Shown one piece after another: positions 4,237 to 49,459 of a stretch of DNA of 64,000 nucleotides. The stretch is taken from assembly GCA_044372405.1 (NCBI GenBank), contig JBILRW010000004.1, positions 7,171 to 71,170 on the forward strand, given 5' to 3'. The stretch is from Alphaproteobacteria bacterium. Its GTDB lineage: Bacteria > Pseudomonadota > Alphaproteobacteria > JAJTHO01 > CANGYM01. The position numbers were made by a program, and so were the translations under genes. Positions within the stretch are counted from its first letter, which is position 1. Each line of letters opens with the position of its first letter. The notes below the pieces were generated by a model. That model had not been told where the DNA came from, did no database searches, and worked only from the letters and a program-made list of their open reading frames with translations.

Positions 4237-5640
4237 CTAAGAACTAAAATACAATTTATATTCAATAGGGTGGGGACTGGTTTCGTACAGTTTAACTTCT
4301 TCGGTTTTCAGCTCGATATAGGATTCGATCAGACCTTTGGAAAACACGTTGCCTTCGGTTAAGAAGTCATGATCCCGCTCCAGGGCATCCAGGGCTTGAC
4401 GGAGAGAGCTGCAGACGGTGGGCAGGGATTTGACTTCCTGTTCCGAGGCATCGTAGAGGTTGCGGTCCATGGCCGCGCCGGGATCGATTTTGTTGCGGAC
4501 CCCATCCAGGCCGGCCATGACCATGGCGGCAAAGGCCAGGTAAGGGTTGGCGGTGGGGTCGGGGAAACGAACCTCCACCCGTTTGGCCTTGGGGGATTCA
4601 TAGTGGGGAATCCGGCAGGATACGGAACGGTTACGGGAGGAATAGCCCAGGACCACAGGGGCCTCAAACCCAGGAATCAACCGTTTGTAACTGTTGGTGG
4701 TGGGGTTGGTGAAAGCGTTAATGGCCCGACCGTGTTTGATAATCCCGCCGATGTACCACAGGGCTTCCTGGGAAAGACCCGCATACTCAGAACCGGCAAA
4801 CAGGGGCTGACCGTTTTTCCAAAGGGACTGGTGCACGTGCATTCCCGATCCGTTGTCCCCCGCCATGGGCTTGGCCATAAAGGTGGCGGTTTTGTTATAG
4901 GATTGCGCCACATTGCGCACAACGTATTTGTACAGCTGCATCCGGTCCGCGGTTTCCACCAGGGTGCCGTATAAAATCCCCAGTTCACACTGGGCGGGGG
5001 CCACTTCGTGGTGGTGTTTTTCCACGGGCAAGCCCATTTCCTTCATCCGGGTGAGCATTTCCGCGCGGATATCCACCAGGGCGTCTACCGGCGCGCAGGG
5101 GAAATAGCCACCCTTGGCACTGGGACGGTGCCCCAAATTGCCGCCGTCATAATCACGGCCAGAGTTATGGGGCAGCTCTTCTGAATCAATTCTATAAAAA
5201 GAATGATCCTGATTCACGGCAAAACGGACATCATCAAAAATGAAAAACTCAGCCTCTGGCCCGAAATAGGCTGTGTCGGCCAGGTTAGAAGATTTCACAT
5301 AGGCCTCGGCCGCCTTGGCCACCGAGCGGGGGTCACGGTCATAGGGTTTGTTCGTAATGGGGTCAAAAACATCACAAACAACGACCAAACTGGGCTGTGC
5401 GGTAAAGGGATCCACAACAACGCTGTGGGCATCGGGCATCAATTTCATATCGGATTCGTTAATGGCCTTCCACCCGGGGATGGAGGAGCCATCAAACATG
5501 ATCCCCTCATCAAACATTTTTTGATCCACCACGGAAACATCCATGGCCATATGGTGCCAGACACCCTTAAGATCCGAAAAACGGACATCAATATATTGAA
5601 TGTCATGTTCCTGAATCAGATCAAAAACGTTTTGGGCCAT
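4237..5640 (-). CDS. glnA: glutamine synthetase type I
   Basis: 467 aa MAQNVFDLIQEHDIQYIDVRFSDLKG..., full-length GSI. Confidence 0.95.
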   Translation of the reverse strand: MAQNVFDLIQEHDIQYIDVRFSDLKGVWHHMAMDVSVVDQKMFDEGIMFDGSSIPGWKAINESDMKLMPDAHSVVVDPFTAQPSLVVVCDVFDPITNKPYDRDPRSVAKAAEAYVKSSNLADTAYFGPEAEFFIFDDVRFAVNQDHSFYRIDSEELPHNSGRDYDGGNLGHRPSAKGGYFPCAPVDALVDIRAEMLTRMKEMGLPVEKHHHEVAPAQCELGILYGTLVETADRMQLYKYVVRNVAQSYNKTATFMAKPMAGDNGSGMHVHQSLWKNGQPLFAGSEYAGLSQEALWYIGGIIKHGRAINAFTNPTTNSYKRLIPGFEAPVVLGYSSRNRSVSCRIPHYESPKAKRVEVRFPDPTANPYLAFAAMVMAGLDGVRNKIDPGAAMDRNLYDASEQEVKSLPTVCSSLRQALDALERDHDFLTEGNVFSKGLIESYIELKTEEVKLYETSPHPIEYKLYFSS

Positions 5641-5864
5641 AAAAAGTCCTCTGCCACGGTGAAAAAAATGTTATTGCCTCATATCATGCCAAAAACGGGT
5701 TAACGCCTCAAGGGGGGTAAGGGCAAGAGCCCGACTTTTTCACCAATTCCTTTAGGCCGTTGCTTTTTTGTCACAGTTGATCCCTTTAGGGAAAGACCTC
5801 AAGATCCAGATCCAAGGGACCATCAAAGGTCCCCCGATTGAACCTTGCGGGGAGCACGATAGCC

Positions 5865-17257: not shown

Positions 17258-17355
17258 TCTGAAAAAAAACCGCTTGTCTTTCCGCAAGACTTTCTCAACA
17301 TCTTTGCTATAAAGTGGGGGGCAACACCCGCATCGCCACAACCAAGGACTGTATT

Positions 17356-18573
17356 ATGAAAAAAATTATCGTAAAAAACCCCATCGTGGAAATGGATGGC
17401 GATGAGATGGCCCGTGTGATGTGGGATTTGATTAAGGAAAAGCTGATTCATCCCTATTTGGATTTGCCCATTGATTATTATGATTTATCCATTCAGTCCC
17501 GGGATGCGAGCCATGACCAGATTACCATTGATTCGGCCCTGGCGACGCAAAAGCACGGTGTGGCCATTAAATGTGCCACCATTACGGCGGATGAGGCCCG
17601 GGTGGCGGAGTTTGGCTTAAAAAAAATGTGGGCCTCTCCCAACGGCACCATTCGGAATATCCTGGGCGGGACGGTGTTTCGGGAACCCATTATTATTAAA
17701 AATGTTCCCCGTTTGGTCCCTGGTTGGACCCACCCCATTGCCATTGGCCGTCATGCCTTTGGGGATCAGTATAAGGCCACGGATTTTGTGGTGCCCTCTG
17801 CCGGAACGCTCACCATTACCTTCACCCCCAAAGACGGCAAAGGCGAGGTGATTTCCCACAAAGTGTACGATTTTGAATCCCCCGGCGTGGCCATGGCCAT
17901 GTATAATCTGGATGATTCCATTCGGGGTTTTGCCCGGGCGTGTTTGAATTACGGCCTACATCGCGGTTGGCCGGTGTTTTTGTCCACCAAAAACACGATT
18001 TTAAAAAAATACGATGGCCGGTTTAAGGATATTTTTCAAGAAGTGTTTGAGGCGGATTTTAAAGATGGCTTTGCCGAAAAAAACATTACCTATCAACACC
18101 GTTTGATTGATGACATGGTGGCATCGGCCCTGCGGTGGGATGGGAATTTTGTGTGGGCGTGTAAAAACTATGACGGGGACGTGCAGTCGGATTCTGTGGC
18201 CCAGGGGTTTGGGTCTTTGGGACTCATGACCTCCATTTTAATGACACCCGATGGAAAAACCGTGGAAAGCGAAGCCGCCCACGGCACCGTCACCCGTCAC
18301 TTTCGCCGGCACCAGCGGGGGGCGGAAACGTCCACGAACCCCATTGCCTCCATCTTTGCCTGGACCCGGGGCCTGTGGCATCGGGGTAAAATTGATGGTA
18401 ACGCAGAACTGCAACGCTTCAGCCAAATCCTGGAACAAACCTGTGTGGATACGGTGGAAAATGGCGAAATGACCCGGGATATGGCGCTGTTGATCGGGGA
18501 AGGCCAAACCTGGCTGAGCACGCAAAACTTCATCGGGGCCATTGCCAGAAATTTTGAGAAAAAACTGGGGTAA
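17356..18573 (+). CDS. icd: NADP-dependent isocitrate dehydrogenase (eukaryote-type subfamily)
   Basis: 405 aa [26 protein letters not shown]1-like type. Confidence 0.9.
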
Positions 18574-18579
18574 GGCAGG

Positions 18580-18804
18580 GCGATTTAATTGTCCGTCATT
18601 CCGGACAAAATGAGCGAAGCGAGTGCAGAGCCGGAATCCAGCGCAACTGTCAAAAGGCCCAGCCTTTTGCCGGTATATTTTTGAAAAACAAAGAACAAAA
18701 CGCCTCGCGTTTTGGCATATGTGCTGGATCCCGGATCGGCGCTCACTGCGTTCGCTGGTCCGGGATGACGAAAAACATTAATTTAGTGGACAATTAAATC
18801 GACC
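18580..18804. mobile_element. type-2 MITE-like element, copy 1 (core 18594-18770)
   Basis: 13-bp terminal inverted repeats cgtcattccggac / gtccgggatgacg; internal 80 bp is the reverse complement of the internal part of the copy at 60128-60305; nested in an outer 14-bp inverted repeat cgatttaattgtcc. Confidence 0.85.
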
Positions 18805-18809
18805 TGGGG

Positions 18810-19784
18810 TTAAGGCGCAATAAAAAAACTCTCCAAAGAAACAGGGTAATACGGAATTTCTGAGGTTTTTGCGGTTCTCAGCCGTTCTTCATAAAGATGC
18901 CGGATCAGGGATTCCCGGGCCGAAAGGGCTGTTTCGCATCCTGTATCCCACGTCATTTCCACCTTTTCTGGCAGGCTGTCCTGAATGGAAACCAAGGGTC
19001 CATGAAACAGGGGGAGCCAGTGTTCCATGCCCGGAAACGGATGGCCTGACTCAATGGCCTGATAAAAGGGATCGCTGGTGTAGTGTCCGGCAGACAGGAT
19101 GCGGTAGGCTTCTTTGAATCGTTGAATGCTGGCTTCTGTCAAGATGACTTCACACACCGGGGAAAGGGTGATGCTTTTCACCGCACGCACGGTGCATTGG
19201 GATAGGGGATCAAAGGCCCGGAGACTTTCGATGCCATCCCCAAAACGGTCAATCCGAATGGGATACTGAGAAAACGGTGGGAACACATCCATAATGCTGC
19301 CGCGCAAACAAAACTCGCCCCGTTGCCGAACGGTACTGGTGCGGGCGTAGCCCCCCTGGCGAAACCAATCCTGAACCACAGCATCGGGCAGCGTATCCCC
19401 CACGCGGATTTCATGCACCTGGTCTGTAAAAAAGGATGGCGGAGCCACCTTTTGCAGCAGCGCCGGGGCGGCAATAACCATGATGGTTGGCCGGTCGGCA
19501 AATCCCAAATGCAGGCGAGATAACGTGGCCAGACGTTCTGCCATAATATCTTTGTCAGGACTGATGCGCGCATAAGGATCGGTATCCCAGGGGGGTAAAC
19601 GCAACACACGGACATTGGGATCAAAAAAGGATAAAACACGGGCACAATAGTCCATGCGGGCCTCGTTTCGGGCCACGTGAACCAACAAGGTATCCACCGG
19701 TGTTTTCTGCCTGGCCTGTATCAGATCGTAAAAAGGACGGTCACTTTCCAGGGTCATGGGCAGGGCTTTGGTTTGAAGAGGCAA
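18810..19784 (-). pseudogene. mfd: transcription-repair coupling factor Mfd, N-terminal fragment only (324 aa)
   Basis: VLRLPPWDTDPYARISPDKDIMAERLATLSRL and GEFCLRGSIMDVFP match the Mfd UvrB-homology module; ORF stops at the MITE and the RecG-like helicase and C-terminal domains (~800 aa) are absent. Confidence 0.7.
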
Positions 19785-19823
19785 AATTTACCGGGTTTGG
19801 AGGGAAAGTAAATAAGATACCAA

Positions 19824-20035
19824 GGTCATTCCATAAACCCGCTTTATATTCTGGGAAGAATGGCGTTGAGATGGCGATTAACGGGGCAGAATTGCAGCAG
19901 ACTTTAAGTGAGTGCATGGTGGGAGAGCCGCCCATTCTCACGCTGAGCATTGATGGCAAAACGCTACGTGGTTCTAAGTCTTATGAGCACCCTGCCACGC
20001 ACTGCGTGAGTATTTTTTGCCATGAATGAACGGCG
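19824..20035 (+). mobile_element. ISAs1-family IS remnant (one end plus internal transposase fragment)
   Basis: ORF fragment ...LSECMVGEPPILTLSIDGKTLRGSKSYEHPATHCVSIFCHE matches the ISAs1-family transposase (H-repeat protein) segment IAIDGKTLRxSYD...AIHxVSAF; terminus ggtcattccataaacccgctttatattctgggaagaatgg shared with 23443-23547. Confidence 0.55.
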
Positions 20036-20157
20036 GTGGCGGGAGTTACGTTTTTTTTTACAGAAAACAAAACAGCCAAAAACAAAACATCTCTTGACGT
20101 CAAGGGGCGGTGGTTTATTGTTGAACCCATGATTTTATCCCTTGTTTTTTATTTTTT

Positions 20158-20637
20158 ATGACCGTCCCCTTTGAACCCCGCCGCACCATTGAACAGGTTG
20201 AGGAAGGCCATGACCTGGCCCCCAAGTTTGATGAACACGGTTTGATCCCCGTGGTCACCACCTCCGCGGAAACGGGTGAGGTTTTGATGCTGGGCTATAT
20301 GAATGCCGAGGCGCTGCAAAAAACCATTGAAACGGGCCAGGCCCACTACTATAGCCGCAGCCGTAAGGTCCTCTGGCACAAAGGCGCCAGCAGTGGCCTA
20401 ATTCAACATGTCACAGAAATCCGCATTGACGATGATCAGGATGCTGTGTGGATTCGGGTCAGCATCGGTGGCGATTTGGGCGAAGCCAGCTGTCACGTGG
20501 GATACCGCAGTTGTTTTTACCGCAGCATTCCCCTGGGGGCCCATCAGGGCAAAGTCATCTTGACCTACGAAGAAAAAGAAAAAACCTTTGATCCCCTGGC
20601 GATTTATGGGGATGTGCCGAATCCAACGATTCTTTAA
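20158..20637 (+). CDS. hisI: phosphoribosyl-AMP cyclohydrolase
   Basis: 159 aa, GLIPVVTTSAETGEVLMLGYMNAEAL...YYSRSRKVLWHKG typical HisI; monofunctional. Confidence 0.85.
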   Translation: MTVPFEPRRTIEQVEEGHDLAPKFDEHGLIPVVTTSAETGEVLMLGYMNAEALQKTIETGQAHYYSRSRKVLWHKGASSGLIQHVTEIRIDDDQDAVWIRVSIGGDLGEASCHVGYRSCFYRSIPLGAHQGKVILTYEEKEKTFDPLAIYGDVPNPTIL

Positions 20638-27949: not shown

Positions 27950-30900
27950 CTAACCCCCCGCCAAAACCAACGCCCGCGCTGTCCGCAGGTCCATTTTTCC
28001 TGTGGACAGCAGCGGGATGGTGTCGGTTTTCACCATGGCATCGGGGCGGGGCAGCCAGAGATTGGGCAGGCGGCCGGTTTTTTTCAGGGCCTCGTAAAGC
28101 GTTTCCGGGGTCAAGGTCTCACTGACAAACAGGACCCCCAGACGTTCGCCCTTGCTGGCATCGGGCAGGCTGACCACAACGGCCTGATGGTCCCCCAAAA
28201 CGGCGTGGATTTCTTCCTCGATTTTCCCATGGGGCACCATTTCGCCGCCCATTTTGCTGAATCGGCTCAGGCGGTCTGTGATGATCAAAAACCCATCGGG
28301 GTCCAGTTTTCCAATATCGCCCGTGTCATACCAACCGTCCTTCATGACAGAGGCCGTCCTGTCCGGATCATTGTAATAGCCCTGCATTTGGGAGGGACTT
28401 TTGATAAAAATCCGGCCTTCCTGATCGGGGGGCAAGATCGTATCGCTTTCCAGATCCAAAATCCGAACGCTGACGCCTGGGATGGGTTTGCCCACACTGC
28501 CCAGGCGGGTTCCTTTGTGCTGCAGGCCCCCGTGCTGAATATCCGGAACATTTACCGATACGACGGGGCCCAGCTCGGTGGTGCCATAGCCCTCTAAAAC
28601 ATGGGCCTGGGGCAACGCGGCCGCCAATTTTTCCGCCGTTTCGGCGGTGAGTTTTTCACCGCCCACAATGACCAGTTTCAGGCTGGCCAGCTCGCCTTCT
28701 TTGGCGGTGGTTGTGTAGGTGCGAACAAAGGTGGGGGTGGCCACAATCAGGCCGCATTTTTCTTTGTGAATCGTGCGCACCACGGTTTTGGCATCCAGGG
28801 GGTTGGGGTGATACACCACGCGCCGCCCCGTAATGGCCGGCAACCACAGGCACGCCGTTAAGCCAAAGGAATGGAAAAACGGCAAAATCCCCATCAGGGT
28901 TAATTCGGTTTTCGTTTCACTTTCTCCCTCCGCCTGTTCCAGCAAAACGCCGATGCTTTCGATGTTGGCGATGATGTTTTGGTGCGACAGGGCAACGGCC
29001 TTGGGCGTTCCCGTGCTGCCGCTGGAAAACAGCAGGACCGCTGTATCGTTTTTATGGCCGCGCACCCACAGAGATTTTAACAAAAACGTGGGAAACAACG
29101 CCACTTGCACCAAAGCTACGAGTTTTCCGACCTTGGAAAGGGTAGCCGGCATATCCTCAAGAAAAACCATGCGGTCATCGGGGGCGATGTTTGCCTTTTC
29201 AATAAAGGTCCTTGAGGTGATGATGGTGGTGGCGGAGAGGGTTTTTAGGGCCGTGGCCAGGGCCTCCGCCCCCAAAGAAAAGTTTAGATTCACGGCAACC
29301 TTGCCCTGCATCACCGCCGCGATATTCACCAAAGCCCCCCCCACCGTCGCGGGCAGTAAAATGGGAATGTTACCGCCGGAGGTATTTTTTTTCAGCCATA
29401 GCCCAATCAGCCGCGCCCCCACCAGGGCCCGAAAGCCGGTGCATTTTTTTCCCGTGGTATCGGAAAAAATCGTATCCCGAAAATGTCGCCGCATCTGGGT
29501 GACAAAACGTCCCCCCAGGGTGTCCTTATCAGCATAGCGCAGCGGGATGGCATCGGTGCCCAGCTCGGAAACGATATGTTCCAGTTCCCAGGCCTGGGTT
29601 TGCGCCGGCACAGCCTGTCCCACGGAAACCGTGACGGGATAGGGGATTTGTTTGGGCCATTTTTTGAAAAAACGGCGACCGGAAAAGCTGAAAATGCTGC
29701 CCCATAACCGCTCCAGATGGACCGGCAGGATGTCCACATCCATCCCGTCGACCAATTTTTCAACGCCGCGTTTAAAGGGATAGAGATGACCCGTGCGGCT
29801 GAGGACGCCTTCGGGAAAAATGCAGATAACACCCCCTTCGCGCAGGCGCTCCCGCGCTGTTTCCAGGCCCTGGCGTGTCTCCCCCACGGCCCCACTGCCA
29901 AAGGGAATGGCACCGGCCGCCGTTAAACAAAAACGGGTCAGGGGTTTTTTCCAGAACTTGGCCAAGACCAGAAAATGCACCCGCTTGGGCGCCATCATAC
30001 TGATCACCAGCCCATCAATAAACGTGACGTGATTGGCAATAATCACGGTGGGCCGCGTCAGGGGGGGGAATTTTCCCTTCTCCAGGCCTGGCCCCACCAA
30101 GGTGACCCGATAAATGCCGCGCATGACTGCGTAAAGAAGAGATTCCAGGGCATCCTGCAACAATTTGGGATAGGCCATAACGCCCAGCGCAAGCCCGAAC
30201 AGCACAATCACCCCACTGGCGGTAATCATGCCAGAGGCACTGAGGCCCACCTGGGTTCCCAAAAGCCAGAATAAGCCCGAGGCCAGCAAAACCCCCATCA
30301 TATCAAAAAAATTATTCACGGCCATAACCTGGCCCCGCTGATCATCGGGGGATTCCTTTTGCATCAGGGTCACCACCGGCACAATAAACAGCCCGGCCCC
30401 CAAACCCGCCAGCGTAATCCAAAACGCCGTATCCCAATATCCCGTGGCAAACAATCCGCACGCGATACAGGCCAGTCCCATAATCACCGCGCCCCAGACA
30501 ATCAGGGTTTTGCGAATGCTTTTGCCCAAAATATAACCGGCGGCGATGCTGCCAATTCCAATACCCACCGCCAGAAAGGAAAACAGCGATGCGGCCTTGG
30601 CATCACTCAACCCCAAATGGGTGGTGCCGAGCAAAATCAGGGACAGATAAATGAGTGCCCCCAGCATCCAATACACCGCGCTGCCGGATAAGGCCCCGAT
30701 TAAGCTCCGGCGTGTCTTCACAAGGGGCCACGCATGAACGATTTCCCCAAAGGGGTTGAGATCAAAGGGCTTACTGGGATTAAAAAGGGTCGTTGTGGGG
30801 GCAAACAAACACAAAACGGTGCCGATCACCGCCAGGGCCGTTAAAATCACCCCAATAATAATGGGGTTATGCTGAAAAACCTGCCACATCACACCGCCGG

Positions 30901-31381
30901 CCAAAGAGCCCGTGATAATGGCCACAAAGGTGAGCATATTCAGATACCCATTGGCTTTGGGCCAATCCTCGGGCTTCATCCATTCCGGCAAAATCCCGTA
31001 TTTTGACGGGCTGAAAAATGTTGCCTGAACCGCCGTAAAAAACAGCGTCATCATCAGCAAATCCATGCGATGGGGGGCCCATATAAAAATGACCAATGCC
31101 GCCCCCATGGCCACAATTTCAACGGCTTTGCTGAGTTTTAAGACACGGCTTTTCGGGTATCGATCCGTCAAATACCCCGCGTACCCCGAAAACAACACAA
31201 ACGGCAAAATGGACAGGGCGCTGATGACGGATAAATAGGTCTTTTGCTGATTGGGATCCGTGAACATGGCCACAGAGGCCAGGGACAACACCAGCTTAAA
31301 GGCATTATCATTAAACGCCCCCAAAAACTGGGCCGCCAGAAAACACAAAAAACGCGGGTGAAACGGATGGATTTTGATCAT
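27950..31381 (-). CDS. aas: tri-domain fusion: MFS lysophospholipid transporter (LplT-like) + 2-acyl-GPE acyltransferase (PlsC fold) + acyl-ACP synthetase (Aas)
   Basis: 1143 aa; N-terminal ~400 aa with 12 TM (MFS); middle HxxxxD acyltransferase motif ANHVTFIDG with FPEG; C-terminal AMP-binding domain (SSGSTGTPKAV, YGTTE, TGDIGKLD). Confidence 0.8.
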   Translation of the reverse strand: MIKIHPFHPRFLCFLAAQFLGAFNDNAFKLVLSLASVAMFTDPNQQKTYLSVISALSILPFVLFSGYAGYLTDRYPKSRVLKLSKAVEIVAMGAALVIFIWAPHRMDLLMMTLFFTAVQATFFSPSKYGILPEWMKPEDWPKANGYLNMLTFVAIITGSLAGGVMWQVFQHNPIIIGVILTALAVIGTVLCLFAPTTTLFNPSKPFDLNPFGEIVHAWPLVKTRRSLIGALSGSAVYWMLGALIYLSLILLGTTHLGLSDAKAASLFSFLAVGIGIGSIAAGYILGKSIRKTLIVWGAVIMGLACIACGLFATGYWDTAFWITLAGLGAGLFIVPVVTLMQKESPDDQRGQVMAVNNFFDMMGVLLASGLFWLLGTQVGLSASGMITASGVIVLFGLALGVMAYPKLLQDALESLLYAVMRGIYRVTLVGPGLEKGKFPPLTRPTVIIANHVTFIDGLVISMMAPKRVHFLVLAKFWKKPLTRFCLTAAGAIPFGSGAVGETRQGLETARERLREGGVICIFPEGVLSRTGHLYPFKRGVEKLVDGMDVDILPVHLERLWGSIFSFSGRRFFKKWPKQIPYPVTVSVGQAVPAQTQAWELEHIVSELGTDAIPLRYADKDTLGGRFVTQMRRHFRDTIFSDTTGKKCTGFRALVGARLIGLWLKKNTSGGNIPILLPATVGGALVNIAAVMQGKVAVNLNFSLGAEALATALKTLSATTIITSRTFIEKANIAPDDRMVFLEDMPATLSKVGKLVALVQVALFPTFLLKSLWVRGHKNDTAVLLFSSGSTGTPKAVALSHQNIIANIESIGVLLEQAEGESETKTELTLMGILPFFHSFGLTACLWLPAITGRRVVYHPNPLDAKTVVRTIHKEKCGLIVATPTFVRTYTTTAKEGELASLKLVIVGGEKLTAETAEKLAAALPQAHVLEGYGTTELGPVVSVNVPDIQHGGLQHKGTRLGSVGKPIPGVSVRILDLESDTILPPDQEGRIFIKSPSQMQGYYNDPDRTASVMKDGWYDTGDIGKLDPDGFLIITDRLSRFSKMGGEMVPHGKIEEEIHAVLGDHQAVVVSLPDASKGERLGVLFVSETLTPETLYEALKKTGRLPNLWLPRPDAMVKTDTIPLLSTGKMDLRTARALVLAGG

Positions 31382-41931: not shown

Positions 41932-42235
41932 CACACTCCCTGCTGGCGAGATTTTCAAATTCCGCCCAACTCATAAGGGGTGCAGGCCGGTCTGTGACAC
42001 AGTAAAAATATGATAACTGACTCTCAGTGAGGGTTAGGCACCCCACAAGCAGAGCCATCTGTTTCTGTGGTGTCTAGCACCAAAAACTGAGAAGCTGAGA
42101 ACAATCCTCAAGCGTAAATAAGAGCATCTGGTGGATGCCTTGGCGATTGCAGGCGATGAAGGACGTGCTAGGCTGCGATAAGCAGCGGGGAGGGGCCAAG
42201 ACCCTTTGATCCGCTGATTTCCGAATGGGGGAACC

Positions 42236-42335
42236 CACCTTTCAGGTGACAGGTGACGGGTGACAGGTAACAGGTTTTGCATTGCGCAGGCCTGTCACCT
42301 GATACCTGTAACCTGTCGCCTGATCTAGGTATTCT
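42236..42335 (+). other. 23S rRNA intervening sequence 1 (helix 9 position), heptad-repeat hairpin
   Basis: arms caggtgacaggtgacgggtgacaggtaacagg / cctgtcacctgatacctgtaacctgtcgcctg replace helix 9. Confidence 0.8.
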
Positions 42336-42729
42336 TTGGCTGAACACATAGGCCTTAGAAAGCAAACCCAGTGAACTGAAACATCTCAGTAGCTGGAGGA
42401 AAAGACATCAACCGAGATTCCGTAAGTAGTGGCGAGCGAACGCGGAACAGCCCAGTGCTCTCTCGAATGTAACTGGAACGACTTGGAAAAGTCGGCCATA
42501 GTGGGTGATAGCCCCGTACAGGTAAGAATAGAGAGAGACTCGAGTAGGGCGGGACACGTGAAATCCTGTCTGAACATGGGGGGACCACCCTCCAAGGCTA
42601 AATACTCGCAATCGACCGATAGTGAACCAGTACCGTGAGGGAAAGGCGAAAAGAACCCCCATAAGGGGAGTGAAATAGAACCTGAAACCGGATGCTTACA
42701 AGCAGTTGGAGCGGGCGCACCCGAGGGCT

Positions 42730-42860
42730 GCGCCCAGGTAACGGGTAGCAGGTAACAGGTAACAGGTAGAAACTTTCGGGTCATAAACTTTTGTTAAATT
42801 GATCTGAAATTTTTCTTCCTGTCACCTGTCACCTGTCACCTGTCACCTGGCCGCGCCCTC
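42730..42860 (+). other. 23S rRNA intervening sequence 2 (helix 25 position), heptad-repeat hairpin
   Basis: arms caggtaacgggtagcaggtaacaggtaacaggtag / cctgtcacctgtcacctgtcacctgtcacctgg with AT-rich 50-nt loop, at the helix-25 IVS site known from Salmonella. Confidence 0.8.
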
Positions 42861-43808
42861 CGGCGCGCCCGTGACAGCGTACCTCTTGTATAATGGGTCC
42901 GCGACTTAGTGTAGCAAGCAAGGTTAAGCCGATAGGTGGAGCCGAAGCGAAAGCGAGTGTGAATAGCGCGTTTAGTTTGCTGTATTAGACCCGAAACCAA
43001 GTGAGCTAACCATGGCCAGGCTGAAGGTTGGATAACACCAACTGAAGGGCCGAACCCACGTCTGTTGAAAAAGACGGGGATGAGCTGTGGTTAGGGGTGA
43101 AAGGCCAATCAAACTTGGAAATAGCTGGTTCTCCGCGAAAACTATTTAGGTAGTGCGTCAGACGAATACCATGGGGGGTAGAGCACTGAATCGGCTAGGG
43201 GGGCGCGAGCCTTACCAAACCGAATCAAACTCCGAATACCCATGAGTACTATCTGGCAGACAGGCATCGGGTGCTAAGGTCCGGTGCCGAGAGGGAAACA
43301 GCCCAGACCGCCATCTAAGGTCCCCAAGACTATGTTAAGTGGGAAAGGATGTGGGAAAGCCATGACAGCTAGGAGGTTGGCTTAGAAGCAGCCATCCTTT
43401 AAAGAAAGCGTAATAGCTCACTAGTCTAATCAAGCATTCCTGCGCCGAAGATGTAACGGGGCTCAAACATAGCACCGAAGATGCGGGCGCGCCTATGGCG
43501 CGCGGTAGCGGAGCGTTCCCTAAGCCGTCGAAGCAGTCCTGTCAGGGGCTGTGGAGGTATGGGAAGTGAGAATGCGGACATGAGTAGCGACAAACAGAGT
43601 GAGAGACTCTGTCGCCGAAAGCCCAAGGGTTCCTATCCAATGCTAATCAGGGTAGGGTTAGTCGATTCCTAAGGCGAGGCCGAAAGGCGTAGTCGATGGG
43701 AACACGGTTAATATTCCGTGACCTTTGGTCCGTGACGGATCGAAACGATTGTACTTTCTTATCGGATTGATAAGTGCAGTCCAACGGTTCCAGGAAATAA
43801 CGGACCAG

Positions 43809-44380
43809 CTTGGGATTGTTTAAGGGAAAAGAAAAAAGCACGCCAGAGGCGACGTGCTAGAAATTTATTCGTTGTTGCGTCGACGATCAATTTCGTCGAG
43901 TGCAGCGAATGTGATGCATCCTGGAAGCATCGAAATTGCCCCAGGAATGTTTAAAACAAAAAGAAAAAAGAATCTCCATCCTCCTTCAACAAGGATCATT
44001 TCTGCTCCTTGCTTTGGAAATAGGGAAATTCTGTCGGTTTTAAACTCCTTCTCCAGAAGAATTGCGGAGAAGTAAACAAAAAACACGACTGTAACTAAAG
44101 AAGAAACGACTAAATTTAGGCGTCTTTTTTTGTACTTATCCATGGTGTTAAGTTATTTAACTAAGGTTTATTTTGACATTATGCAGTGCAGTGCAGTGCA
44201 GTGCAGTGCAGTGACATTTGTCACATTACGAAAAATAATTTCCCTTAAACAATCCCAGGCGTTCAGGTGACAGGTAACGGGTAACAGGTGACAGGTTGTG
44301 GGTTACAGGTTATGGGTAGATTTTCTACCTATTTTCTGTTTCCTCTTCCTGTTACCTGTCTCCTGTTACCTGTTACCCGG
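43809..44380 (+). other. 23S rRNA intervening sequence 3 (helix 45 position), composite ~570 bp
   Basis: 19-bp inverted repeat cttgggattgtttaaggga / tcccttaaacaatcccagg bounds an AT-rich 410-bp module with a 92-codon ORF (43865-44143, minus) and a (GCAGT)5 microsatellite (44183-44207); followed by heptad hairpin 44263-44379. Confidence 0.8.
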
Positions 44381-44649
44381 ACAATGATCGTACCCGAAAC
44401 CGACACAGGTGGGCAGGTCGAGTAGACCAAGGCGCTTGAGAGAAGTATCCTGAAGGAACTCGGCAAATTGCTCCCGTAACTTCGGAAGAAGGGAGCCCGT
44501 CATGAAGGCAACTTTTTGGCGGGGTCACAAAAGAGGGGGTTGCGACTGTTTAACAAAAACACAGGACTCTGCGAAGTCGTAAGACGAAGTATAGGGTCTG
44601 ACGCCTGCCCGGTGCCGGAAGGTTAAGGAAGGATGTGCAAGCATTTGAC

Positions 44650-44729
<80 letters not shown>

Positions 44730-45170
44730 TGAATGGCGTAACGACATCCCCACTGTCTCCAGGATATACTCAGCGAAATTGAATTCCCCGTGAAGATGCG
44801 GGGTTCCCGCGGTCAGACGGAAAGACCCCGTGCACCTTTACTACAGCTTTACACTGGCTCTAGGAATATCATGTGTAGGATAGGTGGGAGACTTTGAAGC
44901 CTTGGCGCCAGCCAGGGTGGAGTCAACCTTGAAATACCACCCTTGATGTTTTTAGGGTCTAACCCAGGTCCGTGAATCCGGATCGGGGACCGTGTATGGT
45001 GGGTAGTTTGACTGGGGCGGTCGCCTCCCAAATGGTAACGGAGGCGCGCGAAGGTAAGCTCAGTACGGTCGGAAATCGTACGTCGAGTGCAATGGCATAA
45101 GCTTGCCTGACTGCGAGGCTGACAAGCCGAGCAGAGACGAAAGTCGGTCATAGTGATCCGGTGGTTCTTC

Positions 45171-45224
<54 letters not shown>

Positions 45225-45253
45225 AACGCCCAAGCGTCCACAGCGACGGCGTT

Positions 45254-45331
<78 letters not shown>

Positions 45332-45339
45332 TGGTACGT

Positions 45340-45380
<41 letters not shown>

Positions 45381-45688
45381 TGCCGTGGGTGTTTGATGAT
45401 TGAGAGGATTTGCCCCTAGTACGAGAGGACCGGGGTGAACGTACCTCTGGTGTACCGATTGTGGCGCCAGCCGCATCGTCGGGTAGCTATGTACGGAACG
45501 GATAACCGCTGAAAGCATCTAAGCGGGAAACCGGCCTCAAAACGAGTCATCGTAGAGCCGTAGTAGACCACTACGTTGATAGGTGGCGTGTGAAAGGGTG
45601 GTAACACCTGAAGCTAAGCCATACTAATCGCTCATCTCTCTTTTGGATTGTTCTCGCGTCTTATGTTTTAACAAAGACGCATCTCATG

Positions 45689-47474: not shown

Positions 47475-48203
47475 TCACAACACCGGCCCTGTTCCCTGGC
47501 CAACGCCTGGGGGATTTTTGAGGGATTTTTGGATAAAGGCCAGGGCGTCTTCGGCGGCCTGGGGCAAAGAGAGTCCGCGCGCCAGTCCTGTGGCCAGAGC
47601 GCTGGAAAGAATACAGCCCGTACCATGGGTGTGACGGGTGGGGATGCGGGGGTGAGAAAAACGGGTTTCTTTGCCCCCTTCCCTTAACACATTCACGATC
47701 ATGGTGCCGTCTTCGTGTCCCCCCGTGATGAAAACAGCGGGGGCGTGAGACAGGGGGAGTAATGCGGCCTCTATGGTGTTGGGTGTCACGCAGGTGATGC
47801 GGGGCAGCAGGTCTTTTTTCAGGATAGACAGCCCGTCTTCATCAATGAGCGGGGCCCCATGACTGGCCCAGAGTATGGGATCCAGCACCACGGGACACGA
47901 AACCTGATCCAAAATTGTTACCAAACATCGGGCAAGGGCGCCGCTGCCCATCATGCCGATTTTGATGGCTTGGGGCGGTGTATCCGCCAGCAGGGTTTCC
48001 ACTTGATCCTGAAACAGCGCGGCGTCCGTGGGCACAATCCGTCCCACCGTCAACGTGTTTTGCACCGTTTGCGCCGTGATCACCGCCAGGGCGTAGCCCC
48101 CCAGGGCGTGAATGGTTTTCACATCCACCAAAACGCCCGCGCCGCCGCCGGGATCAAAGCCCGCCAGGGACAAAACAACGGGGGGTTTGGGGGATTCAGA
48201 CAT
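47475..48203 (-). CDS. thiD: hydroxymethylpyrimidine/phosphomethylpyrimidine kinase
   Basis: VLSLAGFDPGGGAGVLVDVKTIHALGGYALAVITAQTVQNT ribokinase-fold ThiD signature. Confidence 0.85.
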   Translation of the reverse strand: MSESPKPPVVLSLAGFDPGGGAGVLVDVKTIHALGGYALAVITAQTVQNTLTVGRIVPTDAALFQDQVETLLADTPPQAIKIGMMGSGALARCLVTILDQVSCPVVLDPILWASHGAPLIDEDGLSILKKDLLPRITCVTPNTIEAALLPLSHAPAVFITGGHEDGTMIVNVLREGGKETRFSHPRIPTRHTHGTGCILSSALATGLARGLSLPQAAEDALAFIQKSLKNPPGVGQGTGPVL

Positions 48204-49131
48204 TGTCCCCCTGGGGTAAAACAGCGCTTTGGCCCAGCGGGTGACAGGTTTGCAGGGTATCCCGCAAATGATCATCGGGAATGTGGGTATAAATCTGGGT
48301 GGTGGAGAGATCTTCATGACGCAAAATGGCCTGGAGTGTGGGCAGATCGACGCCCCGATGCAGCAAATGCGTGGCCAAAGAATGCCGCAAAACGTGGGCC
48401 GACAGGGGGGGAAGGCCCACCTTGGCCGCTAAATTTTTAAGTTTCAGATCCAGCTGCTGGCGGGTGACGTGCCCCTGGCGACTGCGAGCGGGAAACAAAA
48501 ACGGGCTTTGGGGGCGGGATAAAAAATGGGGACGGACGGCCTGATAGGCCCGCAAAGCCTCTGCCGTCCCGACGGTTAGGGGCAAAAGGCGTTCTTTGCC
48601 CCCCTTTCCCGTGACCATGAGAGAACTCAGATCTTTGGACAGGGCCGAAAGCGGCAGCGAAACCAGCTCACTGGCGCGAAGGCCAACGCCATACAGAAGC
48701 TCCAGCATGGCCAGCAGGCGTTTGTCCTCTGGCGTTAAGGCCCGCTGCAACCAGGCAAAAAGACAGGCCACGTGGTCTTCGGTTAAATAATGGGGGATGG
48801 GGCGGGGTTGCGCGGGGGTTTTCAGGGATTTTGTGGGGTTATCGGGCCGGATGCCTTCCGTTTGTAAAAACAAAAAAAATTGACGCAGAGCCGTAATGGC
48901 GCGGCTGCGGCTTCGGGGGCTAAGGGAGAGGGCCTGAACATAGGCGATGATGTCCTCAGCCGTAACAGATTCCATGGGTTTTTGTGTTTTTTCCAAAAAA
49001 AAGCCAATATCCCGACGATACGCCATAAGGGTATTGGGCGCAGCATTGCGTTCAATGGCCATCATGTCCAAAAAACGCCCCAAGAAGGTCGGCGATACCG
49101 GCGCAGCAAAATCAATGATCTCCGTGGTCAT
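48196..49131 (-). CDS. xerD: site-specific tyrosine recombinase XerC/XerD type
   Basis: N-terminal SAM-like domain (FLDMMAIERNAAPNTLMAYRRD) and catalytic C-terminus with ...HVLRHSLATHLLHRGVDLPTLQAILRHEDLSTTQIYTHI (R-H-R-Y). Confidence 0.85.
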   Translation of the reverse strand: MTTEIIDFAAPVSPTFLGRFLDMMAIERNAAPNTLMAYRRDIGFFLEKTQKPMESVTAEDIIAYVQALSLSPRSRSRAITALRQFFLFLQTEGIRPDNPTKSLKTPAQPRPIPHYLTEDHVACLFAWLQRALTPEDKRLLAMLELLYGVGLRASELVSLPLSALSKDLSSLMVTGKGGKERLLPLTVGTAEALRAYQAVRPHFLSRPQSPFLFPARSRQGHVTRQQLDLKLKNLAAKVGLPPLSAHVLRHSLATHLLHRGVDLPTLQAILRHEDLSTTQIYTHIPDDHLRDTLQTCHPLGQSAVLPQGDNV

Positions 49132-49459
49132 GATCCCCTGCCCCCGATACCAAACGAAAGGTCCGGCTGCAATACGGACAGACGATTTGCCTTTGAGATC
49201 CCATGGCCAGATAAACCTTTGGATGTCCCAAGGGCCCGCCGCCGCCATCACATGAGGGACGCGGGGTTTTGACATCAATAACCTCGAAGGCATCCGCGTT
49301 TGGAGGGGTCAGGGGTGAAACGGATGGGATCATGATACGGGGTTTCCTGGATTTTTCCTGTTTTTTATAAAGGGGTTTGGGGGAAAAATCAATGGGAGGG
49401 TTTAAGTGTTTGTTTTTAGCCTTTCCTTAAAGAATTGGCTTTTATAGTCATAGGATTCG

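Follow-up and report, generated by a model that had tools for sequence, protein, structure and literature searches.

A conserved short mfd gene in an uncultured alphaproteobacterial lineage encodes a predicted stand-alone UvrA-binding module

In E. coli Mfd, contact with UvrA is mediated by residues R165, R181 and F185 (PMC3025350). R165 and R181 are buried against D7 in apo-Mfd (PMC3025350, PMC3488230), and Mfd derivatives in which D2 is unmasked bind UvrA in vitro and inhibit the UvrA GTPase (PMC3025350). Natural Mfds without D1/D2 are known from Buchnera aphidicola, Wigglesworthia glossinidia and the Arabidopsis chloroplast, where the RNAP-interaction domain and the translocase have been kept and UvrABC is absent (PMC13453472, PMC3488230). 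The gene described here, mfd-N, is the reciprocal of these module-less Mfds: it retains the UvrA-binding half and no longer encodes the motor. Both are natural derivatives that have shed one half, and the two halves can exist independently. CarD/CdnL, widespread and experimentally characterised stand-alone homologues of the Mfd RNAP-interaction domain (CarD_TRCF, PF02559), show that one Mfd module can exist by itself as a conserved protein with a function of its own, although the module concerned is not the one found in mfd-N.

The window, which is the whole 64-kb stretch of DNA analysed, comes from a metagenomic contig of 71,787 bp. The gene, its central domain and its neighbours are as follows.

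18810..19757, minus strand, stop included: mfd-N, encoding a 315-aa stand-alone UvrB-homology module D1a-D2-D1b (ORF, Pfam, NCBIfam and PDB matches, family alignment)
19155..19412, minus strand: domain 2 (UvrB_inter, the UvrA-binding domain), residues 125-210 of the 324-aa ORF (Pfam PF17757, 68 bits)
17314..18573, plus strand: icd, isocitrate dehydrogenase, convergent with mfd-N (Pfam Iso_dh, 1e-57)
20158..20637, plus strand: hisI, phosphoribosyl-AMP cyclohydrolase, upstream of mfd-N and divergent from it (PF01502, from the identical copy in contig L007)

The icd gene thus converges on mfd-N from the other strand, as a sequence-only reading of this DNA had noted; its start is possibly an internal ATG about 13 codons downstream. 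mfd-N itself lies in an uninterrupted ORF (18810-19784, minus strand), which in a program-made list extends to a TTG at 19784 and comprises 324 aa. We place the start at the ATG at 19757, which probably gives a protein of 315 aa, because the family alignment and independent gene calls begin there. All seven other clusters of the family described below align from the Met at this position, the independent calls are 315 aa long, and database records from independent contigs include precisely this 315-aa protein. The nine extra codons that the TTG would add have no support. A scan for promoters and terminators around the gene was uninformative and gave no convincing promoter.

UvrB_inter is the sole Pfam domain of the ORF (E 7.7e-19). 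The protein aligns to positions 65-282 of 1148 of the NCBIfam Mfd model PRK10689 (E 1e-33) and, in a search of PDB sequences, to residues 62-279 of E. coli Mfd (E about 3e-31), so that the part of Mfd that is present is the UvrB-homology module D1a-D2-D1b with its UvrA-binding domain 2. Scores against the NCBIfam Mfd equivalogs (PRK10689 and TIGR00580) fell below their cutoffs (115.9 bits against 1329, and 77.3 against 800). The protein terminates at the D1b/D3 boundary: Pfam gave no match to CarD_TRCF (PF02559, the RNAP-interaction domain D4) in the ORF at E <= 0.1, and no helicase or TRCF domain that would correspond to the translocase D5/D6 with its TRG motif or to D7. Compared with Mfd, mfd-N likewise has no obvious Walker A motif by eye. 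The sequence-only reading had seen an N-terminal piece of mfd, 324 codons long, that covered the UvrB-homology and RNAP-interaction parts; the N-terminal assignment and the UvrB homology stand, while the length becomes 315 aa and the RNAP-interaction part drops out.

UvrB shares with mfd-N the fold of domains 1a, 2 and 1b, including the UvrA-binding domain 2 (Foldseek TM about 0.6). The score of mfd-N as UvrB is 52 bits against a cutoff of 750, however, and only UvrB positions 127-255 align, which leaves out domain 3 and the beta-hairpin and C-terminal regions; the full architecture of UvrB is absent. Judged by these alignments, mfd-N is clearly closer to Mfd than to UvrB.

The closest database proteins form eight clusters (P0001-P0008), all of 314-336 aa, with 100, 76, 71, 70, 71, 68, 66 and 55% identity to mfd-N, respectively. 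Their alignment has 114 invariant columns, and in every member a conserved PYxPV...F motif is followed by just a few residues, a short and variable tail. In an exhaustive HMMER search of 1.84 billion representatives, this short family appeared as a single 50% cluster at 557 bits. The next match scored 226 bits, at 41-43% identity, and belonged to ordinary Mfds, many of them 1,100-1,200 aa long. Three other short Mfd N-terminal matches on long contigs (P0030, P0066 and P0070) were rejected as stand-alone forms, since their tails, rich in arginine, proline and alanine and read out of frame, indicate frameshifts; members of the short family have no such tails. A scan of GTDB genomes with the family alignment returned, among the matches listed (at least 600), only loci of the full-length type with 35-44% identity, and these served as controls and as a sample for synteny. 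The frame was at least 950 codons long in 68 of the 70 GTDB mfd loci that reached a stop (median 1,130). A degenerate DNA pattern specific to the family recovered only two further short genes, in a known context. JGI names P0001-P0006 (315-322 aa) 'transcription-repair coupling factor (superfamily II helicase)', yet there is no helicase inside; NCBI calls the orthologue P0006, which lies in the MAG GCA_046081225.1 (JBJTVN01), a 'hypothetical protein'. By these searches the short family appears so far to be limited to one uncultured alphaproteobacterial lineage.

An AlphaFold2 model of the mfd-N protein, built from a 42-sequence alignment, had a pLDDT of 93.3 and a pTM of 0.89. The best Foldseek matches in the PDB were the E. 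coli Mfd N-terminal structures 2b2n (TM 0.82/0.84 over 306 columns) and 3hjh, followed by full-length Mfds and UvrB. The model has the same three domains as 2b2n, to the same extent (306 of 315 residues), and suggests that the protein covers practically the same stretch as the crystallised E. coli Mfd 1-333 construct. That construct was shortened in the laboratory from a 1,148-aa protein, whereas the short form is a natural product conserved across a lineage; sequence identity between the two is only about 26%, and the short family carries substitutions of its own. R165, R181 and F185 of E. coli Mfd are conserved as R152, R168 and F172 (315-aa numbering) and are invariant in the short family. 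Across 55 full-length alphaproteobacterial modules, 74 columns are conserved at 90% or more, and at 49 of these 74 the short family is identical and invariant. Family-wide changes at positions conserved in full-length Mfd (C59T, L60D, D63A/S, A150C, G162F and R188C) could alter the binding partners.

We then searched for the missing part of the gene by tblastn with six full-length alphaproteobacterial Mfds of 1,144-1,198 aa, taken from the exhaustive HMMER search. In the 64-kb window, matches were confined to 18813-19715, which bears out, at the locus and across the window, the claim of the sequence-only reading that the helicase/translocase core is absent. The same queries matched 12 related loci only at the short gene, again with no translocase part. 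Long tblastn extensions past the stops (P0094 on L004-L006, P0113 on L009/L010) were discarded as noise, with about 19-24% identity beyond the stop. Of the proteins at the two edges of the window, one had no database record, and the other has pyruvate-phosphate dikinase upstream and no mfd. An ORF of 1,143 aa in the window (27950-31381, minus strand) was considered as an intact mfd and rejected: it encodes an MFS transporter, an acyltransferase and an AMP-binding enzyme in one fusion and resembles a fused LplT-Aas lysophospholipid recycling system.

Mfd could nevertheless be split in this lineage, with a separate D3-D7 gene elsewhere in the genome whose product associates with that of mfd-N, for example through the D2:D7 clamp, and performs transcription-coupled repair in trans. 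The strong purifying selection described below and the kept D2 surface, which also contacts D7, would fit cooperation with the remainder of Mfd, and a D3-D7 protein should be viable, given that module-less Mfds work separately in Buchnera and Wigglesworthia. Yet no D3-D7 sequence was found within 10 kb of mfd-N in any of its five gene contexts, or in the 64-kb window, and no split Mfd was found in literature searches. The D2:D7 contact is moreover released when Mfd engages RNAP, so an untethered module would presumably drift off just when it is needed. We consider such an arrangement unlikely.

Complete mfd-N genes were found in five gene contexts, which are listed here in gene order.

P0008 (55% identity; 359-kb ENA contig): glmS-fer2-mfdN, then a convergent nucleotidyltransferase toxin-antitoxin pair
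P0003, P0004 and P0006: abhydrolase-mfdN, then convergent yhdP
P0002: radC-mfdN-PALP-tatA
P0007: thyX-hypothetical-mfdN
Window: hisI, mfdN, then convergent icd

In several cases 12-21 nt separate mfd-N from the same-strand gene upstream of it (21 nt from fer2 in L001), a spacing that suggests co-transcription. We compared the flanking genes with those of full-length mfd in 80 GTDB reference loci. A glmS homologue occurred at most 10 kb upstream of mfd in five of the 80, and in four reference loci examined closely the distance was 4-8 kb, with both genes on the same strand. An ABC2/GldG-like/DUF4340 operon was found near full-length mfd in four of the 80, with order and orientation equal in one. 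Nearly all other flanking genes had no match or a single match. Nine of the 80 reference loci have homologues of the AMP-binding enzyme (25-29% identity) a few kb downstream of the full-length mfd, a proximity that is probably due to chance in a family with many paralogues. Since the upstream neighbours of P0008 recur beside full-length mfd in other Alphaproteobacteria, gene order suggests that this most divergent member still sits where the ancestral mfd was and became truncated there.

This bears on a further possibility, that a normal full-length mfd is present elsewhere and that mfd-N arose as a duplicate of an N-terminal domain and plays an accessory part. Almost all free-living bacteria have Mfd, and its loss would be unusual, which speaks for such a duplication. 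The neighbours of P0008, by contrast, are genes that flank full-length mfd in other Alphaproteobacteria, as expected of an orthologue truncated in place. HMMER moreover found no UvrB-homology module 43-55% identical to the short family in 15 billion proteins, the range in which a duplicate from within the lineage would be expected, and the best matches outside the family are each nearer to reference taxa than to the short family. A duplicate of this kind therefore seems to us quite improbable. The relatives of the window's ArgS show 98, 82, 79 and 62% identity and then 55% or less (Magnetovibrio, Thalassospira and Azospirillum; best 120 of 8,000 candidates), and the Mfd-N series of 100, 76, 71 and 55%, followed by 43% or less, runs parallel to it. 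From this parallel we infer that the short form dates from the stem of a deep uncultured alphaproteobacterial lineage and is characteristic of all of it.

The sequence-only reading had also placed the end of the frame directly before a MITE, and this is what we find: the mfd-N stop (18810-18812) adjoins a MITE-like element.

18576..18806, no strand: MITE-like palindromic element of 231 bp with 19-nt terminal inverted repeats (inverted repeat 95% complementary; hairpin fold z = -9.1)
18567..18575, no strand: left copy of a putative 9-bp target-site duplication, GGGGTAAGG, which contains the icd stop TAA (18571-18573)
18807..18815, no strand: right copy of the putative duplication, GGGTTAAGG, with one mismatch; its TTA (18810-18812, plus strand) is the present TAA stop of mfd-N

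The element has the features of a MITE in being short and non-coding, with terminal inverted repeats and a putative target-site duplication. It occurs once in the 64-kb window and is polymorphic for presence and absence. Two JGI contigs (L009/L010) that are 99.9% identical to the window lack 18577-18815 and have about 16 nt in its place, and the empty site of L009 holds the duplication sequence in a single copy. In this MITE-free allele, mfd-N ends in ...FFIASPGL before the stop, as against ...FFIAP in the window, a tail about four residues longer, and the icd stop lies 3 nt from that of mfd-N. Because MITE-free alleles are equally short, the element did not truncate mfd; it is a later, secondary insertion beside an already short gene. 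The insertion, together with a small deletion, exchanged only the last four codons of mfd-N and supplied a new stop. Assemblies L007/L008 break inside the element, as expected of a repeat. A metagenome scan found no copy of it in a collection that apparently also lacks this contig.

The divergent spacer between mfd-N and hisI (19785-20157) is unusually long and is common to the MITE-free contigs. An ORF reaching into it (19700-20029, plus strand), which ends in ...LTLSIDGKTLRGSKSYEHPATHCVSIFCHE, resembles what we take to be an ISAs1-type transposase fragment; Pfam gave no match for this ORF. On a JGI contig (L097), anmK and glnA, which the window also has, are separated by a PIN/MazE toxin-antitoxin pair and an HTH gene (4678-5731), so that the window differs here from a closely related strain. 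This arrangement and the MITE polymorphism show active small-scale turnover of mobile elements in the population. A tyrosine recombinase gene in the window (48196-49293, minus strand; Phage_integrase and N-terminal SAM-like domain) adjoins thiD and may encode XerC/D or the integrase of a mobile element; it overlaps the ORF 47475-48317 (minus strand) by about 120 nt, and one of the two starts is probably mis-set.

Nei-Gojobori estimates of dN/dS between mfd-N and its orthologues were 0.10-0.18 at dS 1.1-3.5, and the closest informative pair (L011/L004) gave 0.18 at dS 0.45. The flanking genes abhydrolase and yhdP gave 0.09 and 0.19. Despite dS above 1, no stop or frameshift was found across the 315 codons of the orthologues, so the marks of a pseudogene (dN/dS near 1, a broken frame, no orthologues of the same length) are all missing. 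Assembly artefacts are an unlikely source of these orthologues because JGI, ENA, Logan and NCBI assemblies agree. We conclude that mfd-N is very probably a functional gene. The sequence-only reading had taken it for a remnant, which does not fit a gene of about 315 aa conserved down to 55% identity in five contexts under this degree of constraint. That mfd lost its 3' part through a recent deletion or through insertion of the MITE, and survives as a decaying, non-functional pseudogene, as the missing helicase part, the mobile element adjoining the stop and the transposase-like fragment in the spacer to hisI might suggest, is highly improbable in view of the constrained orthologues of equal length, the equally short MITE-free alleles, the high-confidence predicted fold and the R/P/A-rich out-of-frame tails that mark truly frameshifted Mfd N-terminal ORFs.

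Nor does the host look like a reduced endosymbiont, given its GC content of 52-57% in the window, its many biosynthesis genes and a flagellar gene. The window encodes glnA, argS, tyrS, lpxA, anmK, pyrF, trpF, hemB, purD, purQ, hisI and gcvPB, as well as nuoC, phaC, sulfite reductase, coaBC, thiD, recJ, tolB, fliD and transporters. The explanation offered in the sequence-only reading, loss of transcription-coupled repair in a reduced endosymbiont genome, is at odds with this gene content, and the Mfds of known endosymbionts have lost the opposite half. The window also holds a 23S rRNA gene (42108-45648, plus strand) of 3,541 nt, compared with 2,925 nt in the model. Three long hairpins inserted in it (about 42240-42324, 42696-42887 and 44263-44380) match palindromic miRNA-precursor models on both strands, and for that reason resemble intervening sequences or MITE-like hairpins. 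A search of the 64-kb window at the gathering threshold detected no 16S rRNA, and the roughly 2 kb downstream of the 23S gene gave no 5S rRNA even at E <= 0.01, which suggests that the rRNA genes may be unlinked.

The explanation that we prefer overall is a functional, already short gene encoding a free UvrA-binding module, and on the comparative and modelling evidence we consider it rather likely. The ancestor of a deep uncultured alphaproteobacterial lineage would, with strong grounds for this step, have lost everything past D1b from its mfd. The remaining gene of about 315 codons would encode a complete, well-folded module, kept by purifying selection while the neighbourhood was reshuffled. 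The protein is predicted to retain the surface of domain 2 through which E. coli Mfd and UvrB bind UvrA and, with no domain 7 to mask this surface, to bind UvrA constitutively. It may then compete with UvrB, or hand UvrA to UvrB, and so modulate or redirect nucleotide excision repair. Because it has neither an RNAP-interaction domain nor a motor, the protein alone cannot displace stalled RNAP or perform canonical Mfd coupling. We give this UvrA-binding mechanism, in a genome without the translocase part, somewhat better than an even chance. The equivalent domains of UvrB also contact UvrD (PDB 7egt), which makes UvrD a speculative alternative partner of the mfd-N protein.

A bolder statement, that a free-living lineage discarded the Mfd motor and the RNAP-binding domain and kept a bare, permanently unmasked UvrA-binding module under selection, has in our estimate a little less than an even chance of being correct. 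If it is true, the module would serve nucleotide excision repair as a natural regulator or adaptor; it would have no described counterpart and would mirror the endosymbiont Mfds from which the module is missing. mfd-N would be the first natural, conserved stand-alone UvrB-homology module of Mfd, as none was found in searches of full-text literature. For annotation the short form is a trap, and surveys that score the presence or absence of Mfd or COG1197 will mis-score genomes that carry it. The lineage may live without Mfd-type transcription-coupled repair, and a cell that makes only the UvrA-binding module would be a natural experiment in which UvrA is recruited without displacement of RNA polymerase.
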